From: Lachnospiraceae bacterium
Lineage (GTDB): Bacteria; Bacillota; Clostridia; Lachnospirales; Lachnospiraceae
Reading direction: 5' to 3'
Assembly (NCBI GenBank): GCA_051879255.1
Contig: JBJELR010000335.1
Span: 1-37,416 of the forward strand
Length of the DNA stretch: 37,416 bases
A program made the position numbers and the translations under genes. Positions within the stretch are counted from its first letter, which is position 1, and each line of letters opens with the position of its first letter. Below the pieces are notes generated by a model. That model saw only the letters and a program-made list of their open reading frames with translations. It was not told the DNA's origin and made no database searches. Positions 2 to 26,754 of this stretch are shown here, piece after piece.

Positions 2-370
2 ATGAAAACCACAAGAGAAAATGGAGAAGCCCTGGAAGGACTCTGTGCTTATCTGGCTGAGAATGATAAATGGGGAGGGAGTCCTGTACTTCTTTATGGG
101 GACTGCCCCGGCCTTTCCTTTTTGTTGAATATGCCCTTTGCTCTGGGAACGGCATGGCCGGATTTGGATTCTTATCCTTATGCAGCCTTTGTCAGTGAAT
201 TGGAGGGGATAGAGACAAGCCCCATTGTGATTTTGCGAAATCATAAGCCTAATGGAGAACAGGGAGAGAAGAAAAGAGCCTATCTTCTGGAATGGATGAA
301 GAAGCAGGGCTATAGCTGTGAATATTCCAATGAGAGCTATGAGGTATATCTTGCAGGAAAATGGAGATAA
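2..370 (+). CDS. Hypothetical protein. Probably the C-terminal part of a gene that continues upstream of the window.
   Basis: ORF track 2..370. The frame is open to the window edge, so the ATG at 2 may be internal. No catalytic motif recognised. The 3' end overlaps the next gene's start region (361/373). Confidence 0.5.
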   Translation: MKTTRENGEALEGLCAYLAENDKWGGSPVLLYGDCPGLSFLLNMPFALGTAWPDLDSYPYAAFVSELEGIETSPIVILRNHKPNGEQGEKKRAYLLEWMKKQGYSCEYSNESYEVYLAGKWR

Positions 371-372
371 AC

Positions 373-1509
373 ATGATTAATTTTAACGTTCCCCCTTTTA
401 CGGGAAAAGAAATAGAATACATTCAGGAAGCGGTAAGGGCACAGAAAATTTGTGGAGATGGGCAGTTTACCCAAAAGTGCAACCACTGGCTGGAGGAAAA
501 AACAAAAACCGCTAAGGCTCTGCTAACCACCTCCTGTACCCATGCTACGGAGCTGGCAGCCCTGTTGATGAAGGTGCAGCCAAAAGATGAGGTGATTATG
601 CCCTCCTATACCTTTGTGTCCACAGCAGATGCCTTCGTCTTAAGAGGAGCTGTTCCGGTTTTTGTGGATATTCGTCCGGATACCATGAACCTGGATGAAA
701 GAAAAATTGAAGCTGCCATTACGGAGAAAACGGTGGGAATTGTTCCCGTTCATTATGCCGGGGTGGCCTGTGAGATGGATACCATTATGGAGATTGCAAA
801 AAGGCATAACCTGTGGGTAATTGAGGATGCTGCCCAGGGAATTATGTCAACCTATAAGGGAAAGGCCCTGGGGACCTTTGGTGAATTTGGCTGCTTTAGC
901 TTTCATGAAACGAAAAATTACAGTATGGGAGAGGGCGGAGCCCTTTTAATCCAACAAAAGAAGTATATTGAAGAAGCAGAGATTCTCAGGGAAAAGGGAA
1001 CCAACCGCAGTAAATTTTACCGAGGACAGATTGATAAATATACCTGGGTAAATTATGGCTCCAGCTATCTGCCCAGTGACATGAATGCGGCTTATCTCTG
1101 GGCCCAGTTAGAAATGGCAGAAGCCATTAACGAAAAGCGGCTGGAGATTTGGAAAAGGTATGAATACCGCCTTACCCCGCTAAAAGAAAAAGGTGTGCTT
1201 GAGCTTCCTGTTGTTCCCAAGGATTGTGTGCATAATGCCCATATGTTCTATATTAAGGTAAAAGATATTGAGGAAAGGACGGCTCTCATCGATGCCTTAA
1301 AAGAGAAGGGAATTATGGCAGTTTTCCACTATATCCCTTTGCATACAGCTCCCGCAGGCTTAGCCTACGGACGTTTCCATGGAGAGGATGTGTATACCAC
1401 CAAGGAAAGTGAACGGCTTTTGCGTCTGCCGATGTATTATGGACTGGAGCCGGGACAGGTGGATGCTATCTGTGAGGCAGTAAAGGAGTTTTTTGAAAGG
1501 AGGCCTTAA
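373..1509 (+). CDS. wecE: dTDP-4-amino-4,6-dideoxy-D-galactose (Fuc4N) transaminase, WecE/RffA type (DegT/DnrJ/EryC1 family)
   Basis: ORF 361..1509. End-to-end resemblance to enterobacterial WecE as I recall it: MINFNVPPF, EVIMPSYTFVSTA, VPVHYAGVACEMD, the PLP-lysine motif FSFHETKNYSMGEGGAL, REKGTNRS and HYIPLH. The ATG at 373 has GGAGA 5 nt upstream and matches the WecE N-terminus. 361 is an alternative start. Confidence 0.85.
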   Translation: MINFNVPPFTGKEIEYIQEAVRAQKICGDGQFTQKCNHWLEEKTKTAKALLTTSCTHATELAALLMKVQPKDEVIMPSYTFVSTADAFVLRGAVPVFVDIRPDTMNLDERKIEAAITEKTVGIVPVHYAGVACEMDTIMEIAKRHNLWVIEDAAQGIMSTYKGKALGTFGEFGCFSFHETKNYSMGEGGALLIQQKKYIEEAEILREKGTNRSKFYRGQIDKYTWVNYGSSYLPSDMNAAYLWAQLEMAEAINEKRLEIWKRYEYRLTPLKEKGVLELPVVPKDCVHNAHMFYIKVKDIEERTALIDALKEKGIMAVFHYIPLHTAPAGLAYGRFHGEDVYTTKESERLLRLPMYYGLEPGQVDAICEAVKEFFERRP

Positions 1510-3317
1510 TGAAGCCAAAACGCATCAATCATAAAGTTCAAAACCGTTTGCTTCCTTTGCTGGTGGTGCCGGTGATCTTTCTGGTGGCCGGCCTGTGTTT
1601 TGATTTTTACTATCAATTGAATGATGATGTGGTGATTAAGGATATTCTGTCGGGAGCTTTTTCGGGGCTTCCTGACGGACATACCAATCAGATTCTTTAT
1701 CCCCTGGGGTGGCTGATTAGTCTGGGTTACAGAATTTTACCGGGGATCCCAATCTATCCCCTGTTTTTGTTAAGCTGCTATGGAATCTGCTTCTATCTTT
1801 TGGGCTATCGGAGTGTACAATATTACCAAAGGCTTTGGGGAAAGCTGCTGTTGCTTTTGCTGGAAGCAGGAATATTCCTGTCCCTGTTTTTGTGGGAGCT
1901 GGTATACGTACAGTATTCTGTTGTCTGTGGGCTTCTTGGAGCAACAGCCTGCTTCTGGTTCTATACCACCAAGCAGGATTTGTCCCCGGGAAGCTTCTGG
2001 CTTTCCAATCTGCCTGCTCTGCTGCTTATCTGGCTGGCTTTTCTGGTGCGTTCCGAAATGCTGCTTTTGCTTACCCCTTTTATTGCAGTAATGGGGATAT
2101 ACCACTGGTCAGAGGAGGTGTCCGGCGGTAAAGAGAATAATCATTTTCCGGGAAAGGACAGGCTTTGGAAAAGGCTATTCAGTAAAGAAAACTGTTGTAA
2201 GTATATTGCCTTCGTTCTGGTGACGGCTTTGGGCTGCCTGGCCTTCTGGGGACTGGATGAGGCGGCTTACACCGGGACAGAGTGGAGGCTGTATCGGCAG
2301 TTTTTTGATGCAAGAACCAGGGTATATGACTACACCTGGTATCCCTCATACGAAGAAAATCAGGCTTTCTATGAGAGTATAGGGGTAAGCAGTGAACAAT
2401 TTAGGCTGATTGACAGCTATAATTTTGGTTTAGATGAGGAAATTGATGCGAATACTTTGGTTAGGATAGCTTCCTTTGGAGAAAAGGCAAGCCGTCAGGG
2501 CAGTCTACCCACCCGGCTGAAAAATGGAATACGGGAAATGGTGCTTCGTATGACAGACCCGGGGGAGGGACCCTATAATTATTTTGTCCTGACGGCCTAT
2601 GGTATGGTTATTGCATTGGCCATTTTACAAAAAAAGAAAAGCTATATCTGGAAATTACTGCTGCTGGCTTTGGCCCATAGTATTTCCTGGATGTATCTGC
2701 TTTTGGCTGACCGGGTGGTAGCAAGAATTGCCCATCCCCTTTATATTTTGGAATTCTTATGCCTTTTGGCTCTTTTGGTAAAAGAATTTCGTGATCGGCC
2801 GCTGTGGAATGCCGAGCTCTATTATCGTCGGGGAGCATTGGCAGTATTTTTCCTGCTGGTCATCATCAGTGGGGCAGTGGTGTTTCCCAGGGTGGCTGAG
2901 GAACAGACCAGACGGCAGAGAGTAAATGAGCCAATGGAGGCCTTTCAGGCTTATGCCGCAAAGGAGGAAGAAAGCTATTATTATTTTGATGTTTATTCCA
3001 CCGTCTATTTTACAGAAAAGCTGTTTGCCCAAAACGGGGAAAAACGTAAGAATTATGATATTTTAGGCGGCTGGTTTAACCGTAGTCCCCTGCAAAAGGG
3101 GGTGGTTTGGGAGTATGCCAAAGAGGCAGGAATAACCATCAGTCAGGCCCTGCTTACCGATAATTTTTACTTTGTGGCGGAAAGACAAGGGGATATGAGT
3201 CCGGTGCTTCTTTGGTATGAGGCTGCTGAAGCTGCTGTGGAGGTAAAAGAGGTAACAGCCTTAGGCCGGGGAGAGAATCCCCTTGTGGTATATCAATTAA
3301 GAATAAATGAGGAATAG
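1509..3317 (+). CDS. Polytopic integral membrane protein (602 aa), family not recognised. Candidate GT-C-fold extracytoplasmic glycosyltransferase.
   Basis: ORF 1509..3317. The start overlaps the wecE stop (TAATG) and has AGGAGG 5 nt upstream. There are many hydrophobic segments. An acidic motif (QLNDDVV) follows the first TM directly, and a roughly 150-aa hydrophilic C-terminal domain follows the last. Confidence 0.55.
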   Translation: MKPKRINHKVQNRLLPLLVVPVIFLVAGLCFDFYYQLNDDVVIKDILSGAFSGLPDGHTNQILYPLGWLISLGYRILPGIPIYPLFLLSCYGICFYLLGYRSVQYYQRLWGKLLLLLLEAGIFLSLFLWELVYVQYSVVCGLLGATACFWFYTTKQDLSPGSFWLSNLPALLLIWLAFLVRSEMLLLLTPFIAVMGIYHWSEEVSGGKENNHFPGKDRLWKRLFSKENCCKYIAFVLVTALGCLAFWGLDEAAYTGTEWRLYRQFFDARTRVYDYTWYPSYEENQAFYESIGVSSEQFRLIDSYNFGLDEEIDANTLVRIASFGEKASRQGSLPTRLKNGIREMVLRMTDPGEGPYNYFVLTAYGMVIALAILQKKKSYIWKLLLLALAHSISWMYLLLADRVVARIAHPLYILEFLCLLALLVKEFRDRPLWNAELYYRRGALAVFFLLVIISGAVVFPRVAEEQTRRQRVNEPMEAFQAYAAKEEESYYYFDVYSTVYFTEKLFAQNGEKRKNYDILGGWFNRSPLQKGVVWEYAKEAGITISQALLTDNFYFVAERQGDMSPVLLWYEAAEAAVEVKEVTALGRGENPLVVYQLRINEE

Positions 3318-3321
3318 GTGT

Positions 3322-3894
3322 ATGTTCATACCGGAAAGTAAACGAATAGAAGGAAATCAGATCTATCTCAGACCCATCACCAGAGAGGATACCGATAAGA
3401 TCATTCAGTGGAGAAACAGTGATACGGTGAGACCCTTTTTCATTTATCAGGAGCCTTTTACCAGAGAGGGGCACTTAAACTGGTTGGAAAAAATGATTGA
3501 ATCCCAGAAAGGCTGTCAGTTTATTATCTGCTTGAAAGAGGCTGACAGGCCTATCGGCAGTACCTATCTAAGAGATTATGATCCGGTAAGCCGAAAAGCA
3601 GAATATGGAGTATTTATTGGAGAAAAAGAGCAGAAGGGGAAGGGAATCGGTACAGAAGCACTTAAGCTGACGATGGAATTTGCCTTTGATGAGCTTAAGC
3701 TCCATAAGGTATTTGCCCGGGCCTTCAGTGACAATCAGGCCTCTATTCATTCCTTTTTAAAGGGAGGCTTCCGGCAGGAGGCCTGCCTGAGGGATGAGGT
3801 TCTGGTTGCCGGAAGATATAGGGACATTATCCTGCTGGCCAGACTGAATCCGAAGGAAGGCCATCAGGCAAAGGATGAGAAAGAAAAGGATTGA
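3322..3894 (+). CDS. GNAT-family N-acetyltransferase (RimJ/RimL-like). Candidate amino-sugar N-acetyltransferase.
   Basis: ORF 3307..3894. It shows the GNAT core with acetyl-CoA loop EKEQKGKGIGTEALK and the pattern IYLRPIT..D...I..W. The ATG at 3322 has GAGGA 8 nt upstream, whereas 3307 lacks an RBS. Confidence 0.75.
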   Translation: MFIPESKRIEGNQIYLRPITREDTDKIIQWRNSDTVRPFFIYQEPFTREGHLNWLEKMIESQKGCQFIICLKEADRPIGSTYLRDYDPVSRKAEYGVFIGEKEQKGKGIGTEALKLTMEFAFDELKLHKVFARAFSDNQASIHSFLKGGFRQEACLRDEVLVAGRYRDIILLARLNPKEGHQAKDEKEKD

Positions 3895-3902
3895 AGATAT
3901 CC

Positions 3903-4880
3903 ATGAAGAAAAAAGTAAGCTTTGTTATTCCCTGTTATCATTCTTCACTTACCTTAAGGAAGGTGGTGGAAGAAGTTCAGGAAACCATGAAAAAACTGGA
4001 GCAATATTCCTATGAAATTATTCTGGTTAATGATTGTTCACCGGATACTACATTTTCGGTGATTCAGGAACTTTGCCGGGAAAATGAAAACATCTGCGGA
4101 GTCAATCTGGCAAAAAATTTTGGTCAGCATGGAGCCCTGATGGCAGGCTTCCATCAGGTGACCGGGGATATTTTGGTGTGTCTGGATGATGATGGACAGA
4201 CACCGGCGGATGAGGCAGGAAAGCTTCTGGAGAGACTGGAAGCAGGAGATGATGTGGTGTATGCCCGCTACCCCCATAAGCAGCATTCTCTCTTTCGTAA
4301 CTTTGGCAGCTTCATCAATGAAAAGATGGCTCAGTTTTTGCTGGGAAAACCGAAGGAGCTTTACGTTTCCAGCTACTTTGCGGCAAAACGCTTCGTGGTG
4401 GACGAAATGTTGAAGTATGAAAATGCCTACCCCTATGTTATTGGTCTGGTACTGCGAACCACAAAAAAAATTTCCAATGTGGAAGTTAATCATCGGCAGC
4501 GGGAGGTAGGAGAATCAGGCTACACCCTGACCAAGCTTCTGGGACTGTGGTTTAATGGGTTTACTGCTTTTAGCACTAAGCCTCTTCGGATTGCCACAGT
4601 GACCGGATTTTTATGTGCCATGGCCGGTTTTCTCTATGCACTTTATACCATTGTTAAAAAATTTGTTAATCCGGCAGTACCGGTGGGGTTCAGTTCTTTG
4701 ATGTCGGCAATCATGTTTATTGGTGGTATGCTGATGCTGATGCTGGGATTAATCGGTGAATATATTGGAAGAATGTACATTTGCATCAACAATGCCCCTC
4801 AGTTTGTCGTGCGGGAGCTGATTCCTGTTAAAGAAAAGAAGGAAGATGCAGAAGGCAAAAGGGAAACGACGGAAAAATAG
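3903..4880 (+). CDS. GT2 polyprenyl-phosphate glycosyltransferase of the GtrB/ArnC/CsbB type, with a C-terminal membrane anchor
   Basis: ORF 3891..4880 (TTG at 3891, ATG at 3903). GT-A motifs are VSFVIPCYHSS, VNDCSPD and CLDDDGQ (DxD). Two C-terminal TM helices (LRIATVTGFLCAMAGFLYALY and LMSAIMFIGGMLMLMLGLIGEYIGR) are typical of the GtrB/ArnC architecture. Confidence 0.8.
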   Translation: MKKKVSFVIPCYHSSLTLRKVVEEVQETMKKLEQYSYEIILVNDCSPDTTFSVIQELCRENENICGVNLAKNFGQHGALMAGFHQVTGDILVCLDDDGQTPADEAGKLLERLEAGDDVVYARYPHKQHSLFRNFGSFINEKMAQFLLGKPKELYVSSYFAAKRFVVDEMLKYENAYPYVIGLVLRTTKKISNVEVNHRQREVGESGYTLTKLLGLWFNGFTAFSTKPLRIATVTGFLCAMAGFLYALYTIVKKFVNPAVPVGFSSLMSAIMFIGGMLMLMLGLIGEYIGRMYICINNAPQFVVRELIPVKEKKEDAEGKRETTEK

Positions 4881-4903
4881 CAGGAAGGGCAAGCAGGATT
4901 TAT

Positions 4904-4961
4904 TTATTTATTTGAGCAATAGAACAGGCAAGGCCTGTTCTAAGCATGGGGATTAAAATGG
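4904..4961 (+). repeat. Copy 1 of a conserved 58-nt intergenic module: T-rich tract, TTGAGCA, perfect hairpin, RBS, ATG
   Basis: Direct comparison gives 53/58 identity to 27821-27878. The perfect palindrome TAGAACAGGC-AAG-GCCTGTTCTA lies at 4920-4942. GGGGA follows, then ATG at 4958. Confidence 0.9.
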
Positions 4962-6802
4962 ATAAGAAAAGAAGGGAAAAGTGGAAGAAAATAGAGCAGA
5001 ATGCGGTGGTCAGAGGCTGCTTTGGCATTCTGGCTTCTATGTCTATGTTTTCCTCATTAAGTACCACAGTAACAGAAGGCAGGGAGGCTGTAGTCTACTC
5101 GAATAGCTTTTTTTCGTTTTTTTTCGCCCTCCTTTGTGCAGTCTGCTTTTTGTTAGTGAAAAAGAAGACCCCAGAGGGGGATAGGAGGGGCTTTTGGGTA
5201 AGTCTGCTTTACAGCCTGGGAATTTCAGCCTGCCTGGTGGTGGGAAAGCAGTTGGAAACGGTGGAAAATATAAAAATAACAGATGTTGTTATTTGGATAA
5301 ACATATTGATATTGACCCTCTTTTTTCAGCCCTTTGTCCAATTTACCTGGAAATGGCTGGAAGAATCAGGGAAGGAAGGGAGTGCAGAAAAAGTAGGGAA
5401 ACAGGGCTGCTTTTTGGGTCAAAAGCTTTTCTGGAAAAATCTCTGTCTCTTACTGATTTGTTGGCTGCCGGTCTTTCTGGCCCTTTATCCGGGGGCCTTC
5501 GTTTATGATGCTGCCGATGAGTATGTGCAGGTAGCCACCAGAAGCTTTACCACTCATCACCCTCTCATTCATGTCCTGCTTTTGGGTGGTTTTGTGGCAG
5601 GAGGGAATAAATTCTTTGGCTCCTTTAATCTGGGAATTGCTGCCTATACCCTGTTTCAGATGCTAATCCTGGCGGCAGTATTCAGCTATACCATTCTCTG
5701 GCTAAAGAGAAGAATAAACCGTAAGTGGGTGGAATGGGCAGCACTTTTATTCTATGGGTTTTTCCCCGTAATTCCTATGTATGCAGTCTGCTCTGCAAAA
5801 GATGGTTTGTTTACCGGCGCAGTTCTTGTGGTAGTGCTTCAGATGCTGTCTCTTTTTGAAGAACCGGAAAGCTTTCTGGCAAAAAAGAGCAACTGGATTG
5901 CAAGTATTCTTGCAGCCGCCATTATGATGCTGCTAAGAAATAACGGATGTTATGCGTATTTCGTGTGGATTCCCCTGGCTATTTTGGGACTATCGGGAAG
6001 GAAAAAAAAGCTGTGTCTGCAAACTGCAGCTCTACTGCTTGGTTCGGCAGCAGTGTTTATGCTGATTTCAAAGGGCCTGGCCTGGGGGCTTGAAGCGGAT
6101 GACAGCGGCAGCCAGGAAATGATGACGGTACCGATTCAACAACTGGTACGAACCTATAACTATAGCCCGGAAAGCTACACAGAAGAAGAACAGGCGTTAC
6201 TTTTTGAGCTTATTCCGGAGAAGGAGATGGGAGCCTACAACCCAAGGATTTCCGACATAGTTAAAAGTAAATTTAATAATGAAAGCTTCAATGCGAATAA
6301 AGGAGAGTACCTGAAGCTTTGGGCTAAAATCGGCCTGCGTAAGCCCATGAGCTATATTAATGCCTGGCTGATGACCTCTTATGGCTTCTGGTATCCGGAT
6401 GCAGTAATCAATATTTATGGAGGAAATACGGTCTATAGCTTTACCTATGAAGACAGTTCCTATTTTGGCTTTGAAACAGAATATCCGGGAACCAGAGAAA
6501 GTAAGTTTCCCTGGCTGGAGGAGCAGTACAGGAGGCTGTCATTGGAGCTTTATCAGCAAAGACTTCCGGGGCTGTCCATGCTTTTTTCTCCCGGCTTTTT
6601 GTTCTGGGTATTCGCTTTTTGTCTATGCTTTCTGCTTTGGAAAAAGCAGGTAAAAAAGCTGGTTCCCCTGCTGCTGATTTTTCTGGTATGGATGACGTTT
6701 CTGCTGGGGCCTACTTATCTGGTGCGCTATGTGCTGATTCTCTGGTTTGCCCTGCCTGTAATTGTAAGTGAGATAAAAGTATGCTATACTGATTTGATAT
6801 GA
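4958..6802 (+). CDS. Large polytopic membrane protein (about 614 aa). Candidate GT-C-fold glycosyltransferase, possibly a DUF6020-like family.
   Basis: ORF 4946..6802. ATG 4958 is preferred because it occupies the same position as the start in repeat copy 2, with GGGGA 6 nt upstream. There are more than 10 hydrophobic segments. An acidic loop motif (YDAADEY) follows a TM, and a roughly 190-aa hydrophilic loop precedes the last TMs. Confidence 0.55.
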   Translation: MDKKRREKWKKIEQNAVVRGCFGILASMSMFSSLSTTVTEGREAVVYSNSFFSFFFALLCAVCFLLVKKKTPEGDRRGFWVSLLYSLGISACLVVGKQLETVENIKITDVVIWINILILTLFFQPFVQFTWKWLEESGKEGSAEKVGKQGCFLGQKLFWKNLCLLLICWLPVFLALYPGAFVYDAADEYVQVATRSFTTHHPLIHVLLLGGFVAGGNKFFGSFNLGIAAYTLFQMLILAAVFSYTILWLKRRINRKWVEWAALLFYGFFPVIPMYAVCSAKDGLFTGAVLVVVLQMLSLFEEPESFLAKKSNWIASILAAAIMMLLRNNGCYAYFVWIPLAILGLSGRKKKLCLQTAALLLGSAAVFMLISKGLAWGLEADDSGSQEMMTVPIQQLVRTYNYSPESYTEEEQALLFELIPEKEMGAYNPRISDIVKSKFNNESFNANKGEYLKLWAKIGLRKPMSYINAWLMTSYGFWYPDAVINIYGGNTVYSFTYEDSSYFGFETEYPGTRESKFPWLEEQYRRLSLELYQQRLPGLSMLFSPGFLFWVFAFCLCFLLWKKQVKKLVPLLLIFLVWMTFLLGPTYLVRYVLILWFALPVIVSEIKVCYTDLI

Positions 6803-6881
6803 TAAGATGAGGCGGTAATAAAAGCCGAATCATGCATCAATGTGGACAGGCAGGATAAGGATTAAGAAACGGGAAGAATCG

Positions 6882-9362
6882 ATGAATCAACGAATTAAAT
6901 TAAGCCGAGGAATTCAATATGTAATGGCAGCAGCGGCAGTCATACTGTTTTTGCTGTTCTGGCCCTTTGGGATAATTGAGAGCAGGTATACCGCTAAAAG
7001 TGATGAGGTGATTTTACAAAAATCGGACCCCATCAGTGTAGAGAATAATGGAACCCAGATGTTTATTGCCCAGGGGAGTAACCTGAAGGCGGTGGATCTT
7101 TATGTTGCCAATGATATGCGGGCAGAAACCATCACCTTTCGGCTTTACGACAGTGCCTATCAGCAGCTTTGGGAAACCTTTTATGTGGTAGATGCAGATA
7201 CAACATTCCCCGGATTTATCCGTATTCCTATTGAGATGGAAACGGTAGAGGGTTGGGAATATTATTATACCGTAGAGGGGCTTACCAGCGATTTGGAGCT
7301 GTATTACGAGGATACGGTCAGGTCAACCTCCTTTGCCAACGGAACCTATCTTTATGGAGGGGCAGAGATGTCGGGCATTAATCTGATTGCCCGCTATCGC
7401 TATACCACTCCCTTTTCCTGGTGGATGATTGTGATTTTCGGTCTGCTTCTGGGGACAGCAGCAATAACCCTGTGGAAGCTGACGGATAGGCTTTTTGCAG
7501 CAAAATGGGCAGATAAAAATAAGGAAATTACCGTACAGAAGCTTTTGCAATGGACCCTGGGGCCGCTTATCCTTCTGGCAATGCTGGCCGCTTTGCTGAC
7601 CGTTTTTCCGGGGCGGACTTTTGGCAGAGGCAAAGTGAACTATGGATTTTACTACCTGGGGATTATGCTTACGGCAGGAGTGCTGTTGTATGGAGTAAGT
7701 CATAAACGATTGGGGCAGGAGCCTTTAATCAACTTAAATAAGATAAAAAGCAGCTGGCCCAATTGGGCCATGTCTGTCTGCTTTGCAGGAGCGTTATGGT
7801 CCTGCTATGAATATATGAATGGGCTTTATGATATCCATCACAGTTATGCTACCTGCAGGCTGCTGGTCTGGTTTGCCCTGGCCACGATTTTCACCTTCAG
7901 GTTCAACAGGCAGGAGCTTTTTAAGGTATACAACCTGATTTATCTGGCAGCAGCCGGTGTAGGAGGCTATTTTTATGCAAAACCCTACCGGGGAGTGGAG
8001 GAGCTGGAGGAGCTTTACCGTCTGCAGGCCTATGTTCTGGTGGTCTGTGGATTTGCCCTGCTGCAGATGCTCATTGCCCTGGTGAAGACGATGGGGAAAA
8101 AAAGGCAGGCTGCAGCTTACTGGTATCTTCCTTATACAGGTGCGTTGGCTTTGTTTCTTGGGATGCTGGTCATTTTCCGCAATACCCGTACCTGGCCTGT
8201 TTTACTGGCAGTGGTTTTCGGCCTTTTTTATCTGCGGATGTGGATGTGGGAAAAGCGGGACAGCCTGCCGGAAATTTTTTGTAATGGAATCATCTTAAAC
8301 TTTCTCTATACGGTAGTCTACTGCCTTATGCATCGCCCTTATCTGCGGTTCAGACACAACCGTTACGGAATGACCTATCATACCGTTACCATGACCGGTT
8401 ATTATCTGGCTCTGGTGCTCTGTGCCATCATGGTGCGCCTGTTTGTGCAGTATAGGAAAAATGGGCGATGGCAGGATGCCTGGAAGGAATTGTGCCTTTT
8501 GGGAACGGGAAATGTATATCTGTTTTTAACTCTGTCCAGAACAGGCTATCTGGCAGCCTTTGTAATGGAAATGTTTATGATCATTTTTCTCTCTGCGCTG
8601 TGGGAAAGAAAGAAGCTAAAGGCTGTCTTTAAGGCGATAGGGCTTACCTTAGGGGTTAGTATACTGTTTTTTCCCATTGTGTTTACGGCTCAGAGAATTG
8701 TGCCCACTCTTTTCAATGACCCCATTTATTCGGAAATTGAGGTGTGGGAATATACGACACAAGAAAACACCCCCAGAGATTCAGAGCTTTATATTGATTT
8801 GGAAGCCTTTGTAAAAATCATGAAAAACAAGCTGTTTGGGATGAAAATGGAAAATATTTCCTTAAGCAGCATAAGAGATAAGCTGCAGCCGGTGTATTTA
8901 CAGTCCCAGGGAAGGCTTTTGGCCAGTGTTTCTCCCACAGAGGGGGAGGAAAGGGATTTTTCCAATGGCCGGATGGAGATTTTTCGGGAATACATTGGTC
9001 AGTGGAACATGACGGGACACGATGAGATGGGATTTCCCTTTCCCGATGGAAGTATCTCTACTCATGCCCATAATACCTATTTACAGGTAGCCCATGACCA
9101 TGGGGTAATTACAGGAGTTATTTTCCTGCTTTTTGGTATTTACACCTTCCTTCTTGCGGTTTACCGCTATGTCAGGGAAAGAGAAAAGCAGCCTTATCTG
9201 ACCTTGATTATTGCCGTCACCATAGCCTTTGGAGCAGCGGGAATGGTGGAGTGGATTTTTCATCCTTGTAATCCCTTTGGCTTTTCCCTAATGGTGGTGA
9301 TTGCCCCTCTGCTGTTTAAACCGGGCAGACCACAGGTCATAAATGGAGGAAAACATGAATAA
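6882..9362 (+). CDS. O-antigen ligase/polymerase-like (Wzy_C domain) membrane protein with an N-terminal extracytoplasmic domain (about 826 aa)
   Basis: ORF 6840..9362. ATG 6882 (MNQRIKLSRG..., then TM1) is preferred. A Wzy_C-type signature sits near the C-terminus: GRMEIFREYI...STHAHNTYLQVAHDHGVITGVIFLLFG. A domain of about 170 aa without TM segments lies between TM1 and TM2. Confidence 0.7.
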   Translation: MNQRIKLSRGIQYVMAAAAVILFLLFWPFGIIESRYTAKSDEVILQKSDPISVENNGTQMFIAQGSNLKAVDLYVANDMRAETITFRLYDSAYQQLWETFYVVDADTTFPGFIRIPIEMETVEGWEYYYTVEGLTSDLELYYEDTVRSTSFANGTYLYGGAEMSGINLIARYRYTTPFSWWMIVIFGLLLGTAAITLWKLTDRLFAAKWADKNKEITVQKLLQWTLGPLILLAMLAALLTVFPGRTFGRGKVNYGFYYLGIMLTAGVLLYGVSHKRLGQEPLINLNKIKSSWPNWAMSVCFAGALWSCYEYMNGLYDIHHSYATCRLLVWFALATIFTFRFNRQELFKVYNLIYLAAAGVGGYFYAKPYRGVEELEELYRLQAYVLVVCGFALLQMLIALVKTMGKKRQAAAYWYLPYTGALALFLGMLVIFRNTRTWPVLLAVVFGLFYLRMWMWEKRDSLPEIFCNGIILNFLYTVVYCLMHRPYLRFRHNRYGMTYHTVTMTGYYLALVLCAIMVRLFVQYRKNGRWQDAWKELCLLGTGNVYLFLTLSRTGYLAAFVMEMFMIIFLSALWERKKLKAVFKAIGLTLGVSILFFPIVFTAQRIVPTLFNDPIYSEIEVWEYTTQENTPRDSELYIDLEAFVKIMKNKLFGMKMENISLSSIRDKLQPVYLQSQGRLLASVSPTEGEERDFSNGRMEIFREYIGQWNMTGHDEMGFPFPDGSISTHAHNTYLQVAHDHGVITGVIFLLFGIYTFLLAVYRYVREREKQPYLTLIIAVTIAFGAAGMVEWIFHPCNPFGFSLMVVIAPLLFKPGRPQVINGGKHE

Positions 9363-11229
9363 GAATACCTTTAATCGTCAGCTTTTTTCCCGCAGAGCAG
9401 GGCTGATGCTTTATGATGTAGCCAGTGTACTGGCAGCCAGCTTTCTGGCTATTTCCATGCGTTATGAATTTAACTATGACATGATTCCCTCCTACTTTTT
9501 GGAGACTATTGCCCGCTTTCTGCCCTTTAATGTTGTGATTACACTGGCTGTTTTCTATGTTTTTCGCCTCTATCACAGTTTATGGGCATTTGCGGGAGAA
9601 AATGAGTTACAGAATGTGGTGGTGGCCAGCTTTCTTGCTTCTGCAGTTAACGGATTAGGATTATTTGCAGTAAGGGTACAGCCCAAGGCAGTACCCAGCA
9701 GCTACTATTTTATGTATACCTTTTTGCTGATTACCTTTACCTTTATCAGCCGATTTTCCTATCGCTTTCTGCGCAACAAAAAGCACAAAATACAAAATAA
9801 GAAAAACACCACAAGGGTAATGATTATTGGTGCCGGTGAAGCCGGAAATGCTATTATCAAGGAAATCGTCAGCAGTAACTATTCCACCATGACCATAGGC
9901 TGCATCATCGATGACGATGCGAAAAAATGGGGAAACTTTATCCAGGGCATCCGGGTGGCAGGAGGCCGGGATAAAATTTTGGAATGCGTGGATTTGTATA
10001 GCATAGATGAAATTTTTATTGCCATTCCCTCTGCCTCCAGAAAAGCCATTCGGGAAATTCTGGAAATCTGTAAGGAGACAGAATGTAAGCTGAAAGCCCT
10101 TCCGGGAATCTACCAGTTGGTTAATGGGGAAGTCAATGTAAGTCAGTTAAGAGATGTGGAGGTAGAGGACCTTCTGGGCAGAGACCCCATCAAGGTGGAC
10201 TTAAACTCTATTTTGCAGTATGTCAGCCAAAAAACGGTACTGGTAACCGGGGGAGGAGGCTCCATTGGCAGTGAGCTGTGTCGCCAGATTGCCCAGCACA
10301 AGCCCAAAAAGCTGATTCTGGTGGATATCTATGAAAACAGCGCATATGATGTACAGCAGGAATTACAGTATAAACACCCGGAACTGGATTTGGTGGTGTT
10401 AATTGCTTCTGTGCGCAATACCAATCGAATGAACTCTATTTTTGAAACCTACAGGCCGGATATCGTCTACCATGCGGCAGCCCATAAGCATGTGCCGCTA
10501 ATGGAAGCCAGTCCCAATGAAGCAGTCAAAAATAACGTGTTCGGCACCTGGAAAACGGCCCAGGCAGCGGCCTATTACGGAACCGGAAAGTTTGTGATGA
10601 TCAGTACCGACAAGGCCGTTAATCCTACCAATATCATGGGAGCCAGCAAACGGATTTGTGAAATGATTATTCAGACCTTTAATCGCCATTATGATACAGA
10701 ATTTGTGGCAGTACGTTTCGGTAATGTGCTTGGCAGCAACGGCAGTGTTATTCCTCTGTTTAAAAAGCAGATTCAGCAGGGAGGGCCGGTAACGGTAACG
10801 CATCCCGATATTATTCGTTACTTTATGACCATACCGGAGGCGGTTTCTTTGGTGCTTCAGGCGGGAGCCTATGCCAGAGGCGGAGAGATTTTCGTTTTGG
10901 ATATGGGTGAGCCGGTGAAGATTCTGGATTTGGCCAAAAATTTGATTCGTCTGTCCGGCTATAAGGTGGGCGAAGATATTCAGATTGAGTTTACCGGTCT
11001 TCGTCCCGGGGAAAAATTATATGAGGAGCTTCTAATGGACGAGGAGGGTCTGCAGGATACGGATAATAAAATGATCCATATCGGAAAGCCCATAGAACTG
11101 GATGAGATGGCCTTTTTTGCCCAACTGAAACGGCTGAAGGAGGAGTCCAAAAACGAGAGTAAAGACATTCGTCAACTGATTAAAGAAATTGTGCCTACCT
11201 ATCAGATACGGGAGGAACAGGAAGCATAG
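9355..11229 (+). CDS. Membrane-anchored nucleotide-sugar 4,6-dehydratase of the CapD/PglF/WbpM/EpsC family, probably acting on UDP-GlcNAc
   Basis: ORF 9343..11229. ATG 9355 has GGAGGA 4 nt upstream. It has four N-terminal TM segments and two Rossmann motifs (VMIIGAGEAGNAI and VLVTGGGGSIGSEL). The family block ISTDKAVNPTNIMGASKR is present. Confidence 0.85.
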   Translation: MNKNTFNRQLFSRRAGLMLYDVASVLAASFLAISMRYEFNYDMIPSYFLETIARFLPFNVVITLAVFYVFRLYHSLWAFAGENELQNVVVASFLASAVNGLGLFAVRVQPKAVPSSYYFMYTFLLITFTFISRFSYRFLRNKKHKIQNKKNTTRVMIIGAGEAGNAIIKEIVSSNYSTMTIGCIIDDDAKKWGNFIQGIRVAGGRDKILECVDLYSIDEIFIAIPSASRKAIREILEICKETECKLKALPGIYQLVNGEVNVSQLRDVEVEDLLGRDPIKVDLNSILQYVSQKTVLVTGGGGSIGSELCRQIAQHKPKKLILVDIYENSAYDVQQELQYKHPELDLVVLIASVRNTNRMNSIFETYRPDIVYHAAAHKHVPLMEASPNEAVKNNVFGTWKTAQAAAYYGTGKFVMISTDKAVNPTNIMGASKRICEMIIQTFNRHYDTEFVAVRFGNVLGSNGSVIPLFKKQIQQGGPVTVTHPDIIRYFMTIPEAVSLVLQAGAYARGGEIFVLDMGEPVKILDLAKNLIRLSGYKVGEDIQIEFTGLRPGEKLYEELLMDEEGLQDTDNKMIHIGKPIELDEMAFFAQLKRLKEESKNESKDIRQLIKEIVPTYQIREEQEA

Positions 11230-11293
11230 TTAAAGAGTATCGCAGACCAGGCTTGCGGTATAGATAGAGAGTAGATTCAGAATGAGGATTATT

Positions 11294-12427
11294 ATGGAAA
11301 AAAAACGGATTTATCTTTCTTCTCCCACCATCCATGGGGAGGAACAGCAATTTGTACAGGAGGCCTTTGATACCAATTGGGTAGCCCCCTTAGGCCCTAA
11401 CGTGAATCATCTGGAGGAAGAAATGTGTGCTTATACCGGGGCAGGGGCTGCCGCCGCCTTAAGCGCAGGTACGGCTGCTATCCATTTAAGTCTTAAGCTG
11501 CTTGATTTACAGCCCCAGGATGTGGTGTTTGTGTCGGATTTAACCTTTTCTGCCACCTGTAACCCAATCTGCTATGAAAAGGCCTCCCCTGTGTTTATTG
11601 ACAGTGAGCGGGACACCTGGAATATGTGTCCCAAGGCATTGGAGAAGGCCTTCAGCCTTTATCCCAACCCCAAGGCGGTAATTTGTGTGCATCTTTATGG
11701 TACGCCGGCTAAGCTGGAGGAAATTCAGGCCATCTGCAGCGCCCATCAGGTTCCCTTGATTGAGGATGCGGCAGAATCCTTAAGTGCCCTCTATCTGGGA
11801 AAACAGACCGGTACCTTTGGAAAATTTGGAATCTATTCCTTTAACGGAAATAAAATCATTACCAGCTCCGGCGGAGGTATGCTGGTATCCGAGGATGAGG
11901 AGGCCATTGAAAGAGCCAGATTTTTGTCCACCCAGGCCAGAGACCAGGCCAGACATTATCAGCACTCCAGGATTGGGTATAATTACCGGATGTCCAATAT
12001 TGTGGCCGGAATCGCAAGGGGGCAGCTTATCCATCTGGAGGAGCATAAAGCACTGAAAAAGAAAATCTATGAGCAGTACAAAAAGGCCTTTTCGGATATT
12101 TCGGAAATTGCCATGAATCCCATGAATCCTAAGGGGGAGGCCAATAACTGGCTGTCCTGTCTGACCATTGAAGAAGGTTCAAGGGTAACGCCCAATCAGA
12201 TCATGGATGCTTTAGAGGCAGAAAATATGGAATCCAGACCCATATGGAAGCCTATGCATCTGCAGCCGGTATTTGAGAAATATGACTTTGTTTCTCTGGA
12301 GCCTAGAGATAAGGCCATCGGAGAGGATATTTTTAACCGGGGACTTTGTCTGCCCAGCGATATTAAGAATACGGCGGAAGATATGGAGAGAATTATCGGC
12401 ATCGTCAGAGCCTGCTTTGGAAAGTAG
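11294..12427 (+). CDS. DegT-family PLP aminotransferase, PglE/EpsN/WcfR type (UDP-4-keto-6-deoxy-HexNAc C4 transaminase)
   Basis: ORF 11282..12427. The MEKKRIYLSSP start resembles EpsN-type N-termini. Motifs seen are NWVAPLGP and GTAAIHL, plus the PLP-lysine block YSFNGNKIITSSGGGMLVS. Confidence 0.8.
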   Translation: MEKKRIYLSSPTIHGEEQQFVQEAFDTNWVAPLGPNVNHLEEEMCAYTGAGAAAALSAGTAAIHLSLKLLDLQPQDVVFVSDLTFSATCNPICYEKASPVFIDSERDTWNMCPKALEKAFSLYPNPKAVICVHLYGTPAKLEEIQAICSAHQVPLIEDAAESLSALYLGKQTGTFGKFGIYSFNGNKIITSSGGGMLVSEDEEAIERARFLSTQARDQARHYQHSRIGYNYRMSNIVAGIARGQLIHLEEHKALKKKIYEQYKKAFSDISEIAMNPMNPKGEANNWLSCLTIEEGSRVTPNQIMDALEAENMESRPIWKPMHLQPVFEKYDFVSLEPRDKAIGEDIFNRGLCLPSDIKNTAEDMERIIGIVRACFGK

Positions 12428-12464
12428 GAAAGGCGGAATAACCGGCTTTGAAATGGAGGTAAAG

Positions 12465-13085
12465 ATGTATAAAAACGGGATTAAACGGGGATTGGATATT
12501 CTATTGTCGGGTCTGGCTCTTATTCTTCTTTCGCCCCTGCTTTTGGTGGTAGCCATTCTGGTAAGAGTAAAGCTGGGAAGTCCCGTTATTTTTCATCAAA
12601 AGAGGCCGGGAAAGGATGAGAAGATTTTTACCCTCTGCAAATTCCGTACCATGACGGATGATCAGGACGAGGAAGGGAATCTTTTGCCGGACAGTGTAAG
12701 ACTGACCCGGTTCGGAAAGCTGCTTCGATCCACCAGTCTGGATGAGCTGCCGGAGCTGTGGAATATCTTTAAAGGGGATATGAGTATTATCGGCCCCAGA
12801 CCCTTACTGGTTTCTTATCTTCCCTATTATACCAAGGAAGAACAAAAACGGCACAGTGTCCGTCCGGGGCTTACAGGTCTGGCTCAGGTAAACGGAAGAA
12901 GTGCATTAAACTGGGAAGAACGTTTTGCCTATGATTTGGAATACGTGGAAAAATGCAGCCTGTCCATGGATGCGCAGATTTTCTTTAAAACCATTGGCAA
13001 GGTATTTACCCGTTCCGGGACCCTTGAGGGAGAGGCACAGCCCCTGCCGGATTTTGATGATTACCGCAAAAGCCAAAGAGCCTGA
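12465..13085 (+). CDS. Small monotopic phosphoglycosyltransferase (bacterial sugar transferase, PglC/EpsL/WcfS type). This is the initiating enzyme.
   Basis: It lies inside ORF 12273..13085. ATG 12465 has GGAGG 5 nt upstream. An N-terminal re-entrant helix (LDILLSGLALILLSPLLLVVAILV) is followed by the motifs KFRTM, LDELPELWNIFKGDMSIIGPRP and PGLTGLAQVNGR. Confidence 0.88.
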   Translation: MYKNGIKRGLDILLSGLALILLSPLLLVVAILVRVKLGSPVIFHQKRPGKDEKIFTLCKFRTMTDDQDEEGNLLPDSVRLTRFGKLLRSTSLDELPELWNIFKGDMSIIGPRPLLVSYLPYYTKEEQKRHSVRPGLTGLAQVNGRSALNWEERFAYDLEYVEKCSLSMDAQIFFKTIGKVFTRSGTLEGEAQPLPDFDDYRKSQRA

Positions 13086-13138
13086 TGCTCATCCATAAAG
13101 AAATCCGTTTTCAGTAAAGCGAAAGGTAGATGATAGGA

Positions 13139-14122
13139 ATGAATATTTTAATCTTGAGTGCAGGTACAAGGAATAAGATTATCCAGTATTTTAAAAAAGA
13201 GTGTGAGCCGGGAGATCGGGTGATTGCTACGGATTGCAGCAATCTGGCTCCGGCCCTTTATGAAGCGGATGCCTTTTATCTCGTTCCCAGGATTACCCAC
13301 CCGGATTATTTGGATAAAATTCTGGAGATTTGTAAGGCGGAAAAGATTACCGGGGTTTTGTCCCTGATCGATCCTGAACTTTCTCTTTTGGCAAAGCACC
13401 AAAAGGCTTTTGTAGCTGTGGGAACTACTGTCATCGGTTCTGACTACGAATTGGTGGAAACCTGCTTTAACAAATATCGTATGTATAAAAAGCTGAAGGA
13501 GCTGGGTATTCCTACGGGAAGGTGCTACCTGGATAAAGCACTGTTTTATGCCGAAAGAAAGGCGGGAAAAATCGATTATCCGATATTTGTCAAGCCGGTC
13601 TGCGGCAGTGCCAGCCTGCAGATTAACAAGGTCAGCAGCGATGAAGAACTGGAGGTTCTTTTTGATTTGCATGATGATCTGATGATTCAGGAATATATGG
13701 ATGGGACAGAATACGGTGCAGACGTTTATATTGATATGCTTTCGGGAAAGACCAGTGCCATTTTTTTGAAGAAAAAAATAAAAATGAGAGCCGGTGAAAC
13801 GGATAAGTCTGTGTCCGTTAAGGATGAGAGGCTGTTTGCCTTAATCTGCAAATTTGTAGAGGAATGCGGTTTCAGAGGAATTATTGATATTGACATTTTT
13901 AATATCAAGGGAGAATACTATATTTCGGAAGTAAACCCACGATTTGGCGGAGGGTATCCTCATGCTTATGAGAGTGGAGTAAATGTTCCCCGGTTGATTA
14001 TGCAAAACCTGAGAGGAAAGACTACGCCCCCTGCCATTGGAGCTTATGAGGAAGGAATCTGCATGATGAAATACAATGAGGTGCTGATTCGCAGGATTTT
14101 GGAAAAGGATATTGTTGAATGA
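13139..14122 (+). CDS. ATP-grasp domain ligase (carboxylate-amine ligase type), substrate unknown
   Basis: ORF 13130..14122. The layout is typical of ATP-grasp enzymes from polysaccharide loci: NILILSAGTRN, VIATD, PIFVKP, IQEYMDGTEYGADVY and EVNPRFGGGYP. Confidence 0.7.
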   Translation: MNILILSAGTRNKIIQYFKKECEPGDRVIATDCSNLAPALYEADAFYLVPRITHPDYLDKILEICKAEKITGVLSLIDPELSLLAKHQKAFVAVGTTVIGSDYELVETCFNKYRMYKKLKELGIPTGRCYLDKALFYAERKAGKIDYPIFVKPVCGSASLQINKVSSDEELEVLFDLHDDLMIQEYMDGTEYGADVYIDMLSGKTSAIFLKKKIKMRAGETDKSVSVKDERLFALICKFVEECGFRGIIDIDIFNIKGEYYISEVNPRFGGGYPHAYESGVNVPRLIMQNLRGKTTPPAIGAYEEGICMMKYNEVLIRRILEKDIVE

Positions 14123-16533: not shown

Positions 16534-16535
16534 AA

Positions 16536-22829: not shown

Positions 22830-22869
22830 ACAGGCAAAGAAGCTGTTTGGAAGGATTATGGAGGTTAAT

Positions 22870-26654: not shown

Positions 26655-26754
26655 GCAGGGATTTTAGTACACTATTGGTATATATGCCTTGTGGCAGTAT
26701 CAGTAGTGTATTTTCGTTTTAAGAACCATAAAATTGATGAAGAAAGGGCAGCAG

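Follow-up and report, generated by a model that had tools for sequence, protein, structure and literature searches.

Five genes on the plus strand of contig JBJELR010000335.1, which comes from an uncultured Lachnospiraceae bacterium of the gut (assembly GCA_051879255.1), overlap or nearly abut each other at positions 361-6802. They encode a WecE-like sugar aminotransferase, a polytopic membrane protein of 602 amino acids (aa), an acetyltransferase of the GNAT superfamily, a glycosyltransferase (GT) of family GT2, and a second polytopic protein belonging to the family DUF6020. Which sugar does this module handle, and on which side of the membrane is it transferred? An earlier note on this DNA had drawn parallels to lipid A modification by the Arn pathway and to systems in which a sugar is loaded onto undecaprenyl phosphate (Und-P) inside the cell, flipped, and added to a polymer outside by a GT of the GT-C type. 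The overall logic of the latter scheme matches the results of our analysis, which covered the whole stretch of 37,416 nucleotides (37.4 kb), in the following called the window. We consider the chances about even that the module, in its full mechanism, serves extracytoplasmic glycosylation of the Gtr/CsbB-YfhO/GacI-GacL type with an Und-P-linked 4-acetamido-4,6-dideoxyhexose, and slightly lower that the sugar loaded by the GT2 enzyme is Fuc4NAc (4-acetamido-4,6-dideoxy-D-galactose).

All five genes were confirmed at the positions which the earlier note had assigned to them:

361..1509 (likely ATG at 373), plus strand: WecE aminotransferase (NF008687, TIGR02379, identity to E. coli WecE)
1509..3317, plus strand: 602-aa polytopic protein of predicted GT-C fold (AlphaFold model and Foldseek; no Pfam model)
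3307..3894 (likely start at 3322, giving 190 aa), plus strand: GNAT N-acetyltransferase (PF13302)
3891..4880 (likely start at 3903), plus strand: GT2 of very probable ArnC/GtrB type (PF00535, alignment to ArnC)
4946..6802 (618 aa; 614 aa from the ATG at 4958), plus strand: DUF6020 polytopic protein (PF19484)

The ATG of the 602-aa gene (1509) overlaps the stop codon of WecE. Throughout the window, all genes are co-directional and constitute one polysaccharide or glycan cluster, with a G+C content of 42-50% and a positive GC skew over the entire length. A scan of the window gave no excess of promoter-like or terminator-like matches over shuffled sequence; counts at this background level would fit a single long operon. 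Within the 65 nt that separate GT2 from DUF6020, positions 4920-4942 make up a perfect 10-bp stem closed by a 3-nt loop (AGAACAGGC AAG GCCTGUUCU region), which stops a few bases short of the start codon and is not followed by a T-run; the z-score of the 73-nt stretch is only -1.7.

The aminotransferase scored 644 bits against the NCBIfam model NF008687 (cut-off 375) and 645 bits against TIGR02379 (cut-off 435), and it shares 65% identical residues with WecE of E. coli K-12 across the full length of 376 aa. The best matches in the PDB were the E. coli WecE structures 4piw and 4zah (565 bits); moreover, the motif SFHETKNY, which contains the lysine binding pyridoxal phosphate, is identical to the aligned E. 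coli sequence. The ArnB model gave a score of 201 bits, at a cut-off of 631. Judged by these comparisons, the protein encoded at 361/373-1509 is a genuine WecE orthologue, i.e. a predicted dTDP-4-keto-6-deoxy-D-glucose 4-aminotransferase producing dTDP-Fuc4N. The WecE-like character that the earlier note had ascribed to this transaminase is thus well founded, as the equivalog cut-off of NF008687 was passed widely. The cross-phylum identity of 65% is unusually high beside the 32% between GT2 and ArnC and beside a GNAT protein unrelated to WecD; this hints at horizontal transfer, or at a very strong constraint acting on WecE alone.

The GNAT protein belongs to PF13302 (Acetyltransf_3, 7.6e-27), and its start at 3322 was chosen on the basis of the ribosome-binding site and a homologue of 190 aa in locus L088. 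Its best NCBIfam match was PseH, which is the N-acetylase of a UDP-4-amino-4,6-dideoxyhexose; the score of 84 bits is just under the cut-off of 93. The search for orthology with WecD had a negative outcome (19% identity over 105 aa, E=0.014). The protein is predicted to be an N-acetylase for the 4-amino group of a nucleoside diphosphate (NDP)-4-amino-4,6-dideoxyhexose.

For the GT2 enzyme (PF00535 at 1.5e-28), the best NCBIfam match was ArnC (NF007986, 195 bits; cut-off 529), and PgfS gave 158 bits (cut-off 500). Among the PDB entries, three ArnC structures reached 157-167 bits (9hwj 167) and the GtrB structure 5ekp 121 bits. The protein aligns to residues 8-322 of E. coli ArnC with 32% identity, which places LDDDGQ opposite LDADLQ (the DXD motif), and its GT-A domain is succeeded by two C-terminal transmembrane (TM) helices at 234-252 and 270-288. 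Because the alignment to ArnC is full length and includes the DXD motif as well as both TM helices, the enzyme is very probably a polyprenyl-phosphate glycosyltransferase of the ArnC/GtrB type, in agreement with the earlier note, and ArnC and GtrB are its closest matches among solved structures. Orthology with ArnC itself can be dismissed, since the score is far under the cut-off and this GT2 clade has Y-[HQRK]-S in place of ArnC's YNE motif.

The 602-aa protein gave no Pfam or NCBIfam match even at E<=10 and no sequence match in the PDB, and an hhalign comparison of its family with E. coli ArnT ended at a probability of 0.1%. The family is large: A word-indexed search found 424 matches, and an exhaustive search found 3341 clusters at 50% identity (E<=1e-3). 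Based on 37 homologues, an AlphaFold (AF2) model was computed, which has a mean predicted local distance difference (pLDDT) of 87.5 and a predicted TM-score (pTM) of 0.90. When this model was compared with the PDB by means of Foldseek, ArnT (5f15) ranked first with E=3.3e-4, a probability of 1.0 and a TM-score of 0.39-0.43. Further matches of high probability were ALG9, EmbC, STT3, and Pmt; DPY19 ranked fourth with a probability of 0.51, and matches outside the GT-C class (transporters of the major facilitator superfamily, other helical bundles) did not exceed 0.13. The protein possesses at least 10 hydrophobic helices and a positively charged N-terminus, and the alignment of homologues shows that N38-D39-D40 and D45, located directly after TM1, are invariant. 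The working definition of GT-C proteins quoted by Rismondo et al. (PMC5836110) comprises 8-13 TM helices and a DXD, DDX, or DXXD motif in an extracellular loop; the 602-aa protein agrees with it in the number of its TM helices as well as in its DD motif, which is invariant and lies in the first loop on the outside. As modeled, the protein adopts with high likelihood a GT-C fold, and it is the candidate cognate extracytoplasmic transferase for GT2.

In order to assess conservation, we scanned genomes with the 602-aa family, taking one genome per species. A relative was found in 170 genomes, and 79 loci were kept; their labels are mostly Lachnospiraceae with a few Eubacteriales, Bacillota, Clostridium sp., and Ruminococcus sp. 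and one Bacteroidaceae, and cultured strains are included. Components were counted in the 56 species-level loci with enough flanking sequence, the loci extending 10 kb. The gene order is [PglK-like ABC transporter]-[GtrA, PF04138]-acyltransferase-3-M580-WecE-602-GNAT-GT2-DUF6020-Wzy_C-like (about 840 aa)-PglF-PglE-PglC, where M580 denotes a membrane protein of about 580 aa, and the order of the block persists in loci whose 602-aa protein has as little as 33% identity. GT2 occurs in 55/56 loci, GNAT in 49 and WecE in 48, which means that the arrangement is not due to chance; the Wzy_C-like protein is likewise encoded in 48 loci, acyltransferase-3 in 46, M580 in 45, PglF in 44, DUF6020 in 41, and GtrA in 16, and homologues of rmlA/rmlB in none. 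WecE and GNAT are locked around the 602/GT2 pair, while the set of GTs further downstream varies between loci. Among the 48 WecE-positive loci, M580 is present in 45 and DUF6020 in 41. This synteny is an observation in its own right and, together with the families of WecE, GNAT, and GT2 and the fold of the 602-aa protein, it is what the data support directly. It follows that the borders of the module were originally drawn too narrowly on both sides: The gene content of 361-6802 stands, but the module extends into 6840-13085 and, at 2-370, past the start of the window. The additional features are:

2..370, plus strand: C-terminus (122 aa) of M580, cut by the start of the window (70% identity to the homologue in locus L006)
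6840..9362, plus strand: Wzy_C-like membrane protein of 840 aa (PF04932, below cut-off)
9343..11229, plus strand: PglF/CapD-type membrane-anchored UDP-GlcNAc 4,6-dehydratase (PF02719 at 5.5e-124)
11282..12427, plus strand: PglE/LegC-like sugar 4-aminotransferase (PF01041 at 1.4e-91)
12453..13085, plus strand: PglC-type small phosphoglycosyltransferase (PF02397 at 2.7e-63; start moved from 12273)

The scheme calls for a flippase and for a source of the WecE substrate. The statement that GtrA, rmlA, and rmlB are absent from the window was borne out by a six-frame scan with hidden Markov models and BLAST. Upstream of it, the picture for GtrA is a different one: In the closest relatives, a GtrA gene is located 3.4-5.8 kb upstream of the 602-aa gene, so that the lack of a flippase gene noted earlier holds for the window but not for the block of these relatives. 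Since no record with the identical WecE product turned up and the contigs with 98-99% identity are short (2.9 and 5.7 kb), the position of GtrA upstream of the window is read from relatives at 74-75% identity. In cultured carriers, the block begins with the ABC transporter.

With regard to the two remaining polytopic proteins, the evidence is of a different quality. The DUF6020 protein matches PF19484 at 6.8e-39, and its AF2 model (pLDDT 80.3) is less confident than that of the 602-aa protein. The Foldseek matches with a probability of at least 0.9 were exclusively Pmt4, Pmt1, and STT3, aligned over about 290-555 columns, none of them at E<=1e-3; ArnT, PglB, and DPY19 followed with probabilities of 0.5-0.7. 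Ranking by E-value brought H+-pyrophosphatases to the top, at a probability of 0.11. The alignment of homologues has an invariant D188, an invariant E192, and a D191 shared by at least 90% of the sequences; these residues come after helix 160-179, which is the fifth and not the first helix. On the basis of this model, we lean somewhat towards a GT-C fold for DUF6020. M580 is represented in the window by the product of 2-370, which has 70% identity to residues 458-575 of a full-length homologue (L006, 1544-3277). The family alignment shows an invariant D40 and a near-invariant D37 after TM1 (D-x-x-D), and searches in Pfam, NCBIfam, and the sequences of the PDB gave no match. This third polytopic membrane protein is a candidate GT-C enzyme. 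When DUF6020, M580, and the 840-aa protein were searched against PDB sequences, no meaningful match emerged, and a literature search by the name 'DUF6020' found no paper. Compared by hhalign among each other and with E. coli ArnT, the 602-aa, DUF6020, and M580 families reached probabilities below 5%; at the level of sequence, they cannot be linked to one another or to ArnT. Thus, of the two GT-C candidates proposed earlier, the 602-aa protein has gained firm ground (ArnT as top match at E=3.3e-4), whereas the evidence for DUF6020 is suggestive; the acidic motifs beside a TM helix, which had been pointed out for both, proved to be invariant in either family (N38-D39-D40 and D45; D188 and E192). 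Homologues of DUF6020 are also encoded on four unannotated contigs of 5-8 kb from human faeces labeled 'Bacteriophage sp.' (MT837038.1, MT837007.1, MT838126.1, and MT838982.1), the first of which encodes in addition a 602-aa homologue, with both genes arranged as in the bacterial module. As this arrangement is the bacterial one, the records are probably mislabeled bacterial fragments; being the sole matches of their kind, they gave no reason to retain a phage origin, as known from Gtr serotype conversion.

How might these proteins cooperate? From the gene content and its order, we infer which sugar is the donor and which nucleotide carries it, that WecE and GNAT supply GT2, that DUF6020 and M580 are catalytic, and what the acceptor is, as follows. 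WecE would aminate an NDP-4-keto-6-deoxyhexose, most likely dTDP-4-keto-6-deoxy-D-glucose supplied by RmlA and RmlB encoded elsewhere in the genome. The PseH-like GNAT protein would then N-acetylate the 4-amino group to give dTDP-D-Fuc4NAc, and GT2 would move the sugar onto Und-P at the inner face of the membrane. A flippase would turn the Und-P-sugar outward; in close relatives, this might be the GtrA-family protein and, in genomes without GtrA, another protein such as the PglK-like ABC transporter. Finally, the 602-aa GT-C enzyme, and probably also DUF6020 and M580, would transfer the sugar outside the cell to distinct positions on the glycan or glycoprotein made by the products of the PglF/PglE/PglC, PglK-like, and Wzy_C-like genes; in relatives, the acyltransferase-3 protein may add O-acetyl groups. 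Four arguments speak for the coupling of WecE and GNAT to GT2, because the genes are interleaved, their order is conserved, the ArnC-like GT2 is the sole Leloir-type transferase of the conserved block (PglC being a phosphoglycosyltransferase), and each of the two aminotransferases has an N-acylating partner of its own: GNAT in the case of WecE, and for PglE an ATP-grasp enzyme here and a PglD-like protein in locus L004. Furthermore, L-Ara4N has the configuration of D-Fuc4N minus C6; given this likeness, it is chemically reasonable for a relative of ArnC to take a 4-acylamido-4,6-dideoxy-galacto sugar as its substrate.

A comparison with known systems supports the scheme in its outline and shows where the module departs from each of them. 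Like GtrA/GtrB/Gtr(type) for the O-antigen of enterobacteria, CsbB-YfhO and GtlA-GtlB for teichoic acids, and GacI-GacL, the operon pairs a cytoplasm-facing GT2 that has two TM helices with a polytopic protein of GT-C type carrying an acidic outside loop, and as in the Gtr systems, a GtrA-family gene belongs to the block of the closest relatives. It differs from the Gtr and CsbB-YfhO systems by the interleaved sugar-tailoring enzymes WecE and GNAT, which point to a 4-acetamido-4,6-dideoxyhexose rather than to Glc, GlcNAc, or Gal, and by up to three unrelated GT-C-like proteins per GT2, none of which belongs to YfhO, GtlB, GtrS, or another named family. That proteins without homology may act in the same role is exemplified by YfhO and GtlB, which are both of GT-C type (PMC5836110). 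With the Arn pathway, which modifies lipid A by L-Ara4N, the module shares a 4-aminotransferase of the DegT family, N-acylation before lipid loading, an ArnC-like GT2, and a GT-C protein structurally closest to ArnT. However, the aminotransferase is WecE and not ArnB, GNAT is not a formyltransferase, ArnT and the 602-aa protein are dissimilar in sequence, and Pfam and NCBIfam scans, as far as they covered the window's open reading frames (ORFs), found no ArnA (UDP-GlcA decarboxylase/formyltransferase), no deacylase of the ArnD/NaxD type, and no ArnE/F flippase. Lachnospiraceae are Firmicutes and have no lipid A. With these enzymes and the acceptor missing, we rejected identity with the Arn pathway, and the transient N-acylation which the label 'Arn-like' had implied loses its support.

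The dTDP-Fuc4NAc branch of enterobacterial common antigen (ECA) synthesis (RffH/RffG, WecE, WecD, WecF) also consists of a WecE step and a subsequent acetylation by a member of the GNAT superfamily. In contrast to this branch, equivalents of rffG and rffH are not nearby in the module, there is no WecD orthologue, and WecF (GT56, PF07429) was not found in the window; the ECA branch was rejected for want of WecD and WecF. As the only conserved transferase is the polyprenyl-phosphate GT2, the sugar would be added from the outer side of the membrane and not via a repeat unit linked to lipid pyrophosphate (lipid-PP). The Pgf operon of S. mutans, which serves protein glycosylation, comprises the GT2 PgfS, the membrane proteins PgfM1 and PgfM2, and the epimerase PgfE. 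The likeness lies in one GtrB-type GT2 flanked by two large polytopic proteins and a sugar-modifying enzyme; the differences are a PgfS score far below the cut-off, membrane proteins that match no NCBIfam model, and an aminotransferase plus an acetyltransferase in place of the epimerase.

Several findings weigh against the scheme outlined above, the most important of which come from ten loci without WecE (L029, L032, L033, L035, L040, L041, L047, L053, L054, and L072; about 5-20 kb in each). Here, the order is PseF-PseI/PseH fusion-PseG-PseC-like aminotransferase-602-GT2-FkbH-like-MBOAT-divergent Wzy_C-like, i.e. a PseC-like DegT aminotransferase occupies the position of WecE, and an operon for pseudaminic acid leads straight into the 602-aa gene. 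These variant loci lack WecE, a free GNAT, M580, and DUF6020; nine of the ten contain GT2, and those enzymes form one clade. Compared with the WecE-linked GT2s, they differ in just three conserved positions, all of them conservatively, so that GT2 carries no donor signature. A near-identical GT2 in the absence of WecE could mean that its donor is independent of WecE. Consequently, of the earlier proposal that the donor is dTDP-Fuc4N or dTDP-Fuc4NAc, the part concerning WecE holds, while the link from WecE and GNAT to GT2 follows from gene order and is weakened by the ten loci. Alternatively, both classes of loci put a 4-aminotransferase and a PseH-type acetylase beside the pair, and GT2 may accept a 4-acetamido-4,6-dideoxyhexose in both. 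Further adverse points are that rmlA/rmlB, the expected source of the WecE substrate, do not occur within 10 kb in any of the 56 loci, that GtrA lies within this distance in just 16 and is not part of the block in the cultured carriers examined, that the GT-C assignment of DUF6020 comes without a significant Foldseek E-value, that what suggests a GT-C role of M580 is a sequence motif, and that hhalign does not connect the three membrane protein families with one another or with ArnT.

Four other explanations have to be weighed against these data. WecE and GNAT on the one hand and GT2 with its GT-C partner on the other might have unrelated functions; the former would make dTDP-Fuc4NAc for a cytoplasmic Leloir GT that incorporates Fuc4NAc into the repeat unit, as WecF does in ECA synthesis, and the latter would add Glc, GlcNAc, or Gal from a UDP-sugar. 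To our knowledge, all characterised Gram-positive enzymes of the GtrB type use UDP-Glc, UDP-GlcNAc, or UDP-Gal, and we know of no ArnC/GtrB-type pathway for which a 4-acetamido-4,6-dideoxyhexose donor has been described. The window offers about ten further GT genes that could act with WecE, the variant loci hold the 602/GT2 pair without WecE and with GT2 almost unaltered, and CsbB and GtlA use common UDP-sugars (PMC5836110). We nevertheless regard this separation of functions as unlikely: A WecF-type GT56 is missing from the window, the downstream GTs vary while WecE and GNAT stay with the 602/GT2 pair, and the ArnC-like GT2 is the one Leloir enzyme of the conserved block. Moreover, the variant GT2s form a single clade, which makes a switch of the donor and shared ancestry equally possible. 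A related idea retains the coupling and exchanges the substrate. The WecE-like enzyme would act on the PglF product UDP-4-keto-6-deoxy-GlcNAc and, together with GNAT, give a sugar of the UDP-2,4-diacetamido-2,4,6-trideoxy-galactose type to be loaded by GT2, which would make rmlAB unnecessary. It would explain why a PglF homologue adjoins the module (44/56 loci) and rmlA/rmlB are never within 10 kb; GNAT is most similar to PseH, which acts on a UDP-4-amino-4,6-dideoxy-HexNAc, the variant loci place a PseC-like and thus UDP-sugar-using aminotransferase before 602/GT2, and ArnC as well as GtrB use UDP sugars. Against it stand the 65% identity to WecE and the equivalog score, which argue for a dTDP substrate without a 2-acetamido group, and the fact that Firmicutes which make rhamnose commonly have rmlAB at another place in the genome; we judge it improbable.

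The other two explanations concern the membrane proteins. By analogy with mycobacterial GT-C enzymes such as Emb/Aft and Mpt, which use decaprenyl-P-arabinose or polyprenyl-P-mannose, the three polytopic proteins might share the work of polymerising or lengthening an extracellular chain as its initiator, elongator, and brancher. An operon in which one GT2 meets as many as three unrelated GT-C-like proteins would fit, EmbC, EmbB, and AftA are among the Foldseek matches, and M580 and DUF6020 were found exclusively in loci with WecE and GNAT (45 and 41 of the 48 loci with WecE, and none of the variant loci). As sets of several GT-C enzymes sharing one lipid-linked donor are also found in plain decoration (Rgt of Rhizobium, Pgf of S. 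mutans), we hold such a division of labour to be quite improbable. Conversely, DUF6020 and possibly M580 might be no glycosyltransferases at all but a polymerase, a ligase, a flippase, or an acyl- or phosphotransferase, leaving the 602-aa protein as the only partner of GT2. The invariant core is indeed the 602/GT2 pair (55/56 loci), no Foldseek match of DUF6020 reached E<=1e-3 with H+-pyrophosphatases leading by E-value, and what ties M580 to GT-C enzymes is a sequence motif. On the other hand, all DUF6020 matches with probabilities of at least 0.9 are GT-C proteins (Pmt4, Pmt1, STT3), and in both families invariant acidic motifs immediately follow a TM helix whose predicted course leads out of the cell. 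This objection is unlikely to be right as well, but it has to be reckoned with.

Taken further, extracytoplasmic glycosylation from an Und-P-linked 4-acetamido-4,6-dideoxyhexose leads to a broader proposal, which is possible but doubtful. Lachnospiraceae would use this lipid-linked sugar as the outside donor for up to three unrelated GT-C families, which decorate or polymerise a family-wide surface glycan, and GT2 and GT-C of the variant loci would use an analogous intermediate of the pseudaminic acid pathway. In this case, the GT2 clade would have 4-acylamido-4,6-dideoxy sugars as its special substrates, just as ArnC has Ara4FN. Since the mechanism of Und-P-sugars and GT-C enzymes is already established, the gain lies in substrates and enzyme families and not in the principle; what would be new are the predicted donor and three uncharacterised GT-C-like families, which are conserved across Lachnospiraceae. 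If true, a donor of the Und-P-Fuc4NAc type would join the short list of lipid-linked donors made by GtrB/ArnC-type enzymes, and a function could be assigned to DUF6020 and to two large unannotated families (the 602-aa family comprises about 3300 clusters at 50% identity). The surface glycans of the Lachnospiraceae, dominant commensals of the gut, have hardly been characterised. As relatives of the block occur in 170 species-level genomes, most of them labeled Lachnospiraceae, its product is probably a central part of the cell envelope that the host immune system and phages encounter. Cultured carriers exist, namely Lachnospiraceae bacterium 10-1 (scaffold KE159818.1), Parablautia muri D42-62, Parablautia intestinalis D8-82, and Lachnospiraceae bacterium 64-25.

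Which glycan might accept the sugar? To judge from its genes, the downstream cluster is a lipid-PP-linked pathway for a surface glycan, and its product is the candidate natural acceptor for the extracytoplasmic decoration. As in the Pgl systems of Campylobacter and Neisseria, homologues of PglF, PglE, PglC, and PglK and a Wzy_C-like protein are encoded; unlike there, none of the scores reaches its equivalog cut-off, the place of PglD is taken in the window by an ATP-grasp enzyme, and the 840-aa protein by far exceeds PglL and WaaL in size. The 840-aa protein scored 27.6 bits against PF04932 (cut-off 31.7), and in its family alignment the C-terminal motif H-A-H-N...Q...D.G and several arginines do not vary; it probably handles the acceptor glycan in the manner of an O-antigen ligase, O-oligosaccharyltransferase, or polymerase. 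It reaches the cut-off of no curated family, and two extracytoplasmic segments are predicted, one of about 150 aa after the first TM helix and another of about 130 aa preceding the HAHN motif. The PglE-like protein, the second aminotransferase of the block, scored 363 bits against the LegC model (cut-off 420). The PglC-type protein, the predicted initiator of an Und-PP-linked glycan, starts at 12453 with MEVKMYKNG..., i.e. at residue 61 of the ORF. Directly 3' of its gene, an ATP-grasp enzyme is encoded at 13130-14122 (NF009406, 'carbamoyl phosphate synthase-like', 490 bits), in the place where L004 has a PglD-type hexapeptide acetyltransferase; this replacement suggests that the 4-amino group of the bacillosamine-type sugar is acylated in this strain with a group other than acetate.

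The variable remainder of the window encodes the approximately ten further GTs mentioned above, which belong to GT4, GT2, GT11, GT14, and GT17-like families. A single protein of 625 aa (24777-26654) fuses a GT2 domain with a GT11 domain of the fucosyltransferase type. The ORFs at 26734-27798 and 32376-33605 (354 and 409 aa) have no Pfam match; the longer one is a weak candidate for a polymerase, with 25 bits against an oligosaccharide repeat-unit polymerase model (cut-off 40). A UDP-GlcNAc 6-dehydrogenase and a 4-epimerase similar to TviB and TviC and two glutamine amidotransferases of the AsnB type are encoded at 15217-17516 and 19816-24783, and these enzymes point to amidated N-acetyl-hexosaminuronic acids in the glycan. 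Finally, a PglK-like ABC exporter is located at 30608-32356 in the variable region. It shares 47-48% identity with the copy heading the block in other loci (L007, 3750-5513; L034, 4126-5883) and is thus distinct from it, so that the source genome probably holds a second PglK-like copy upstream of the window.

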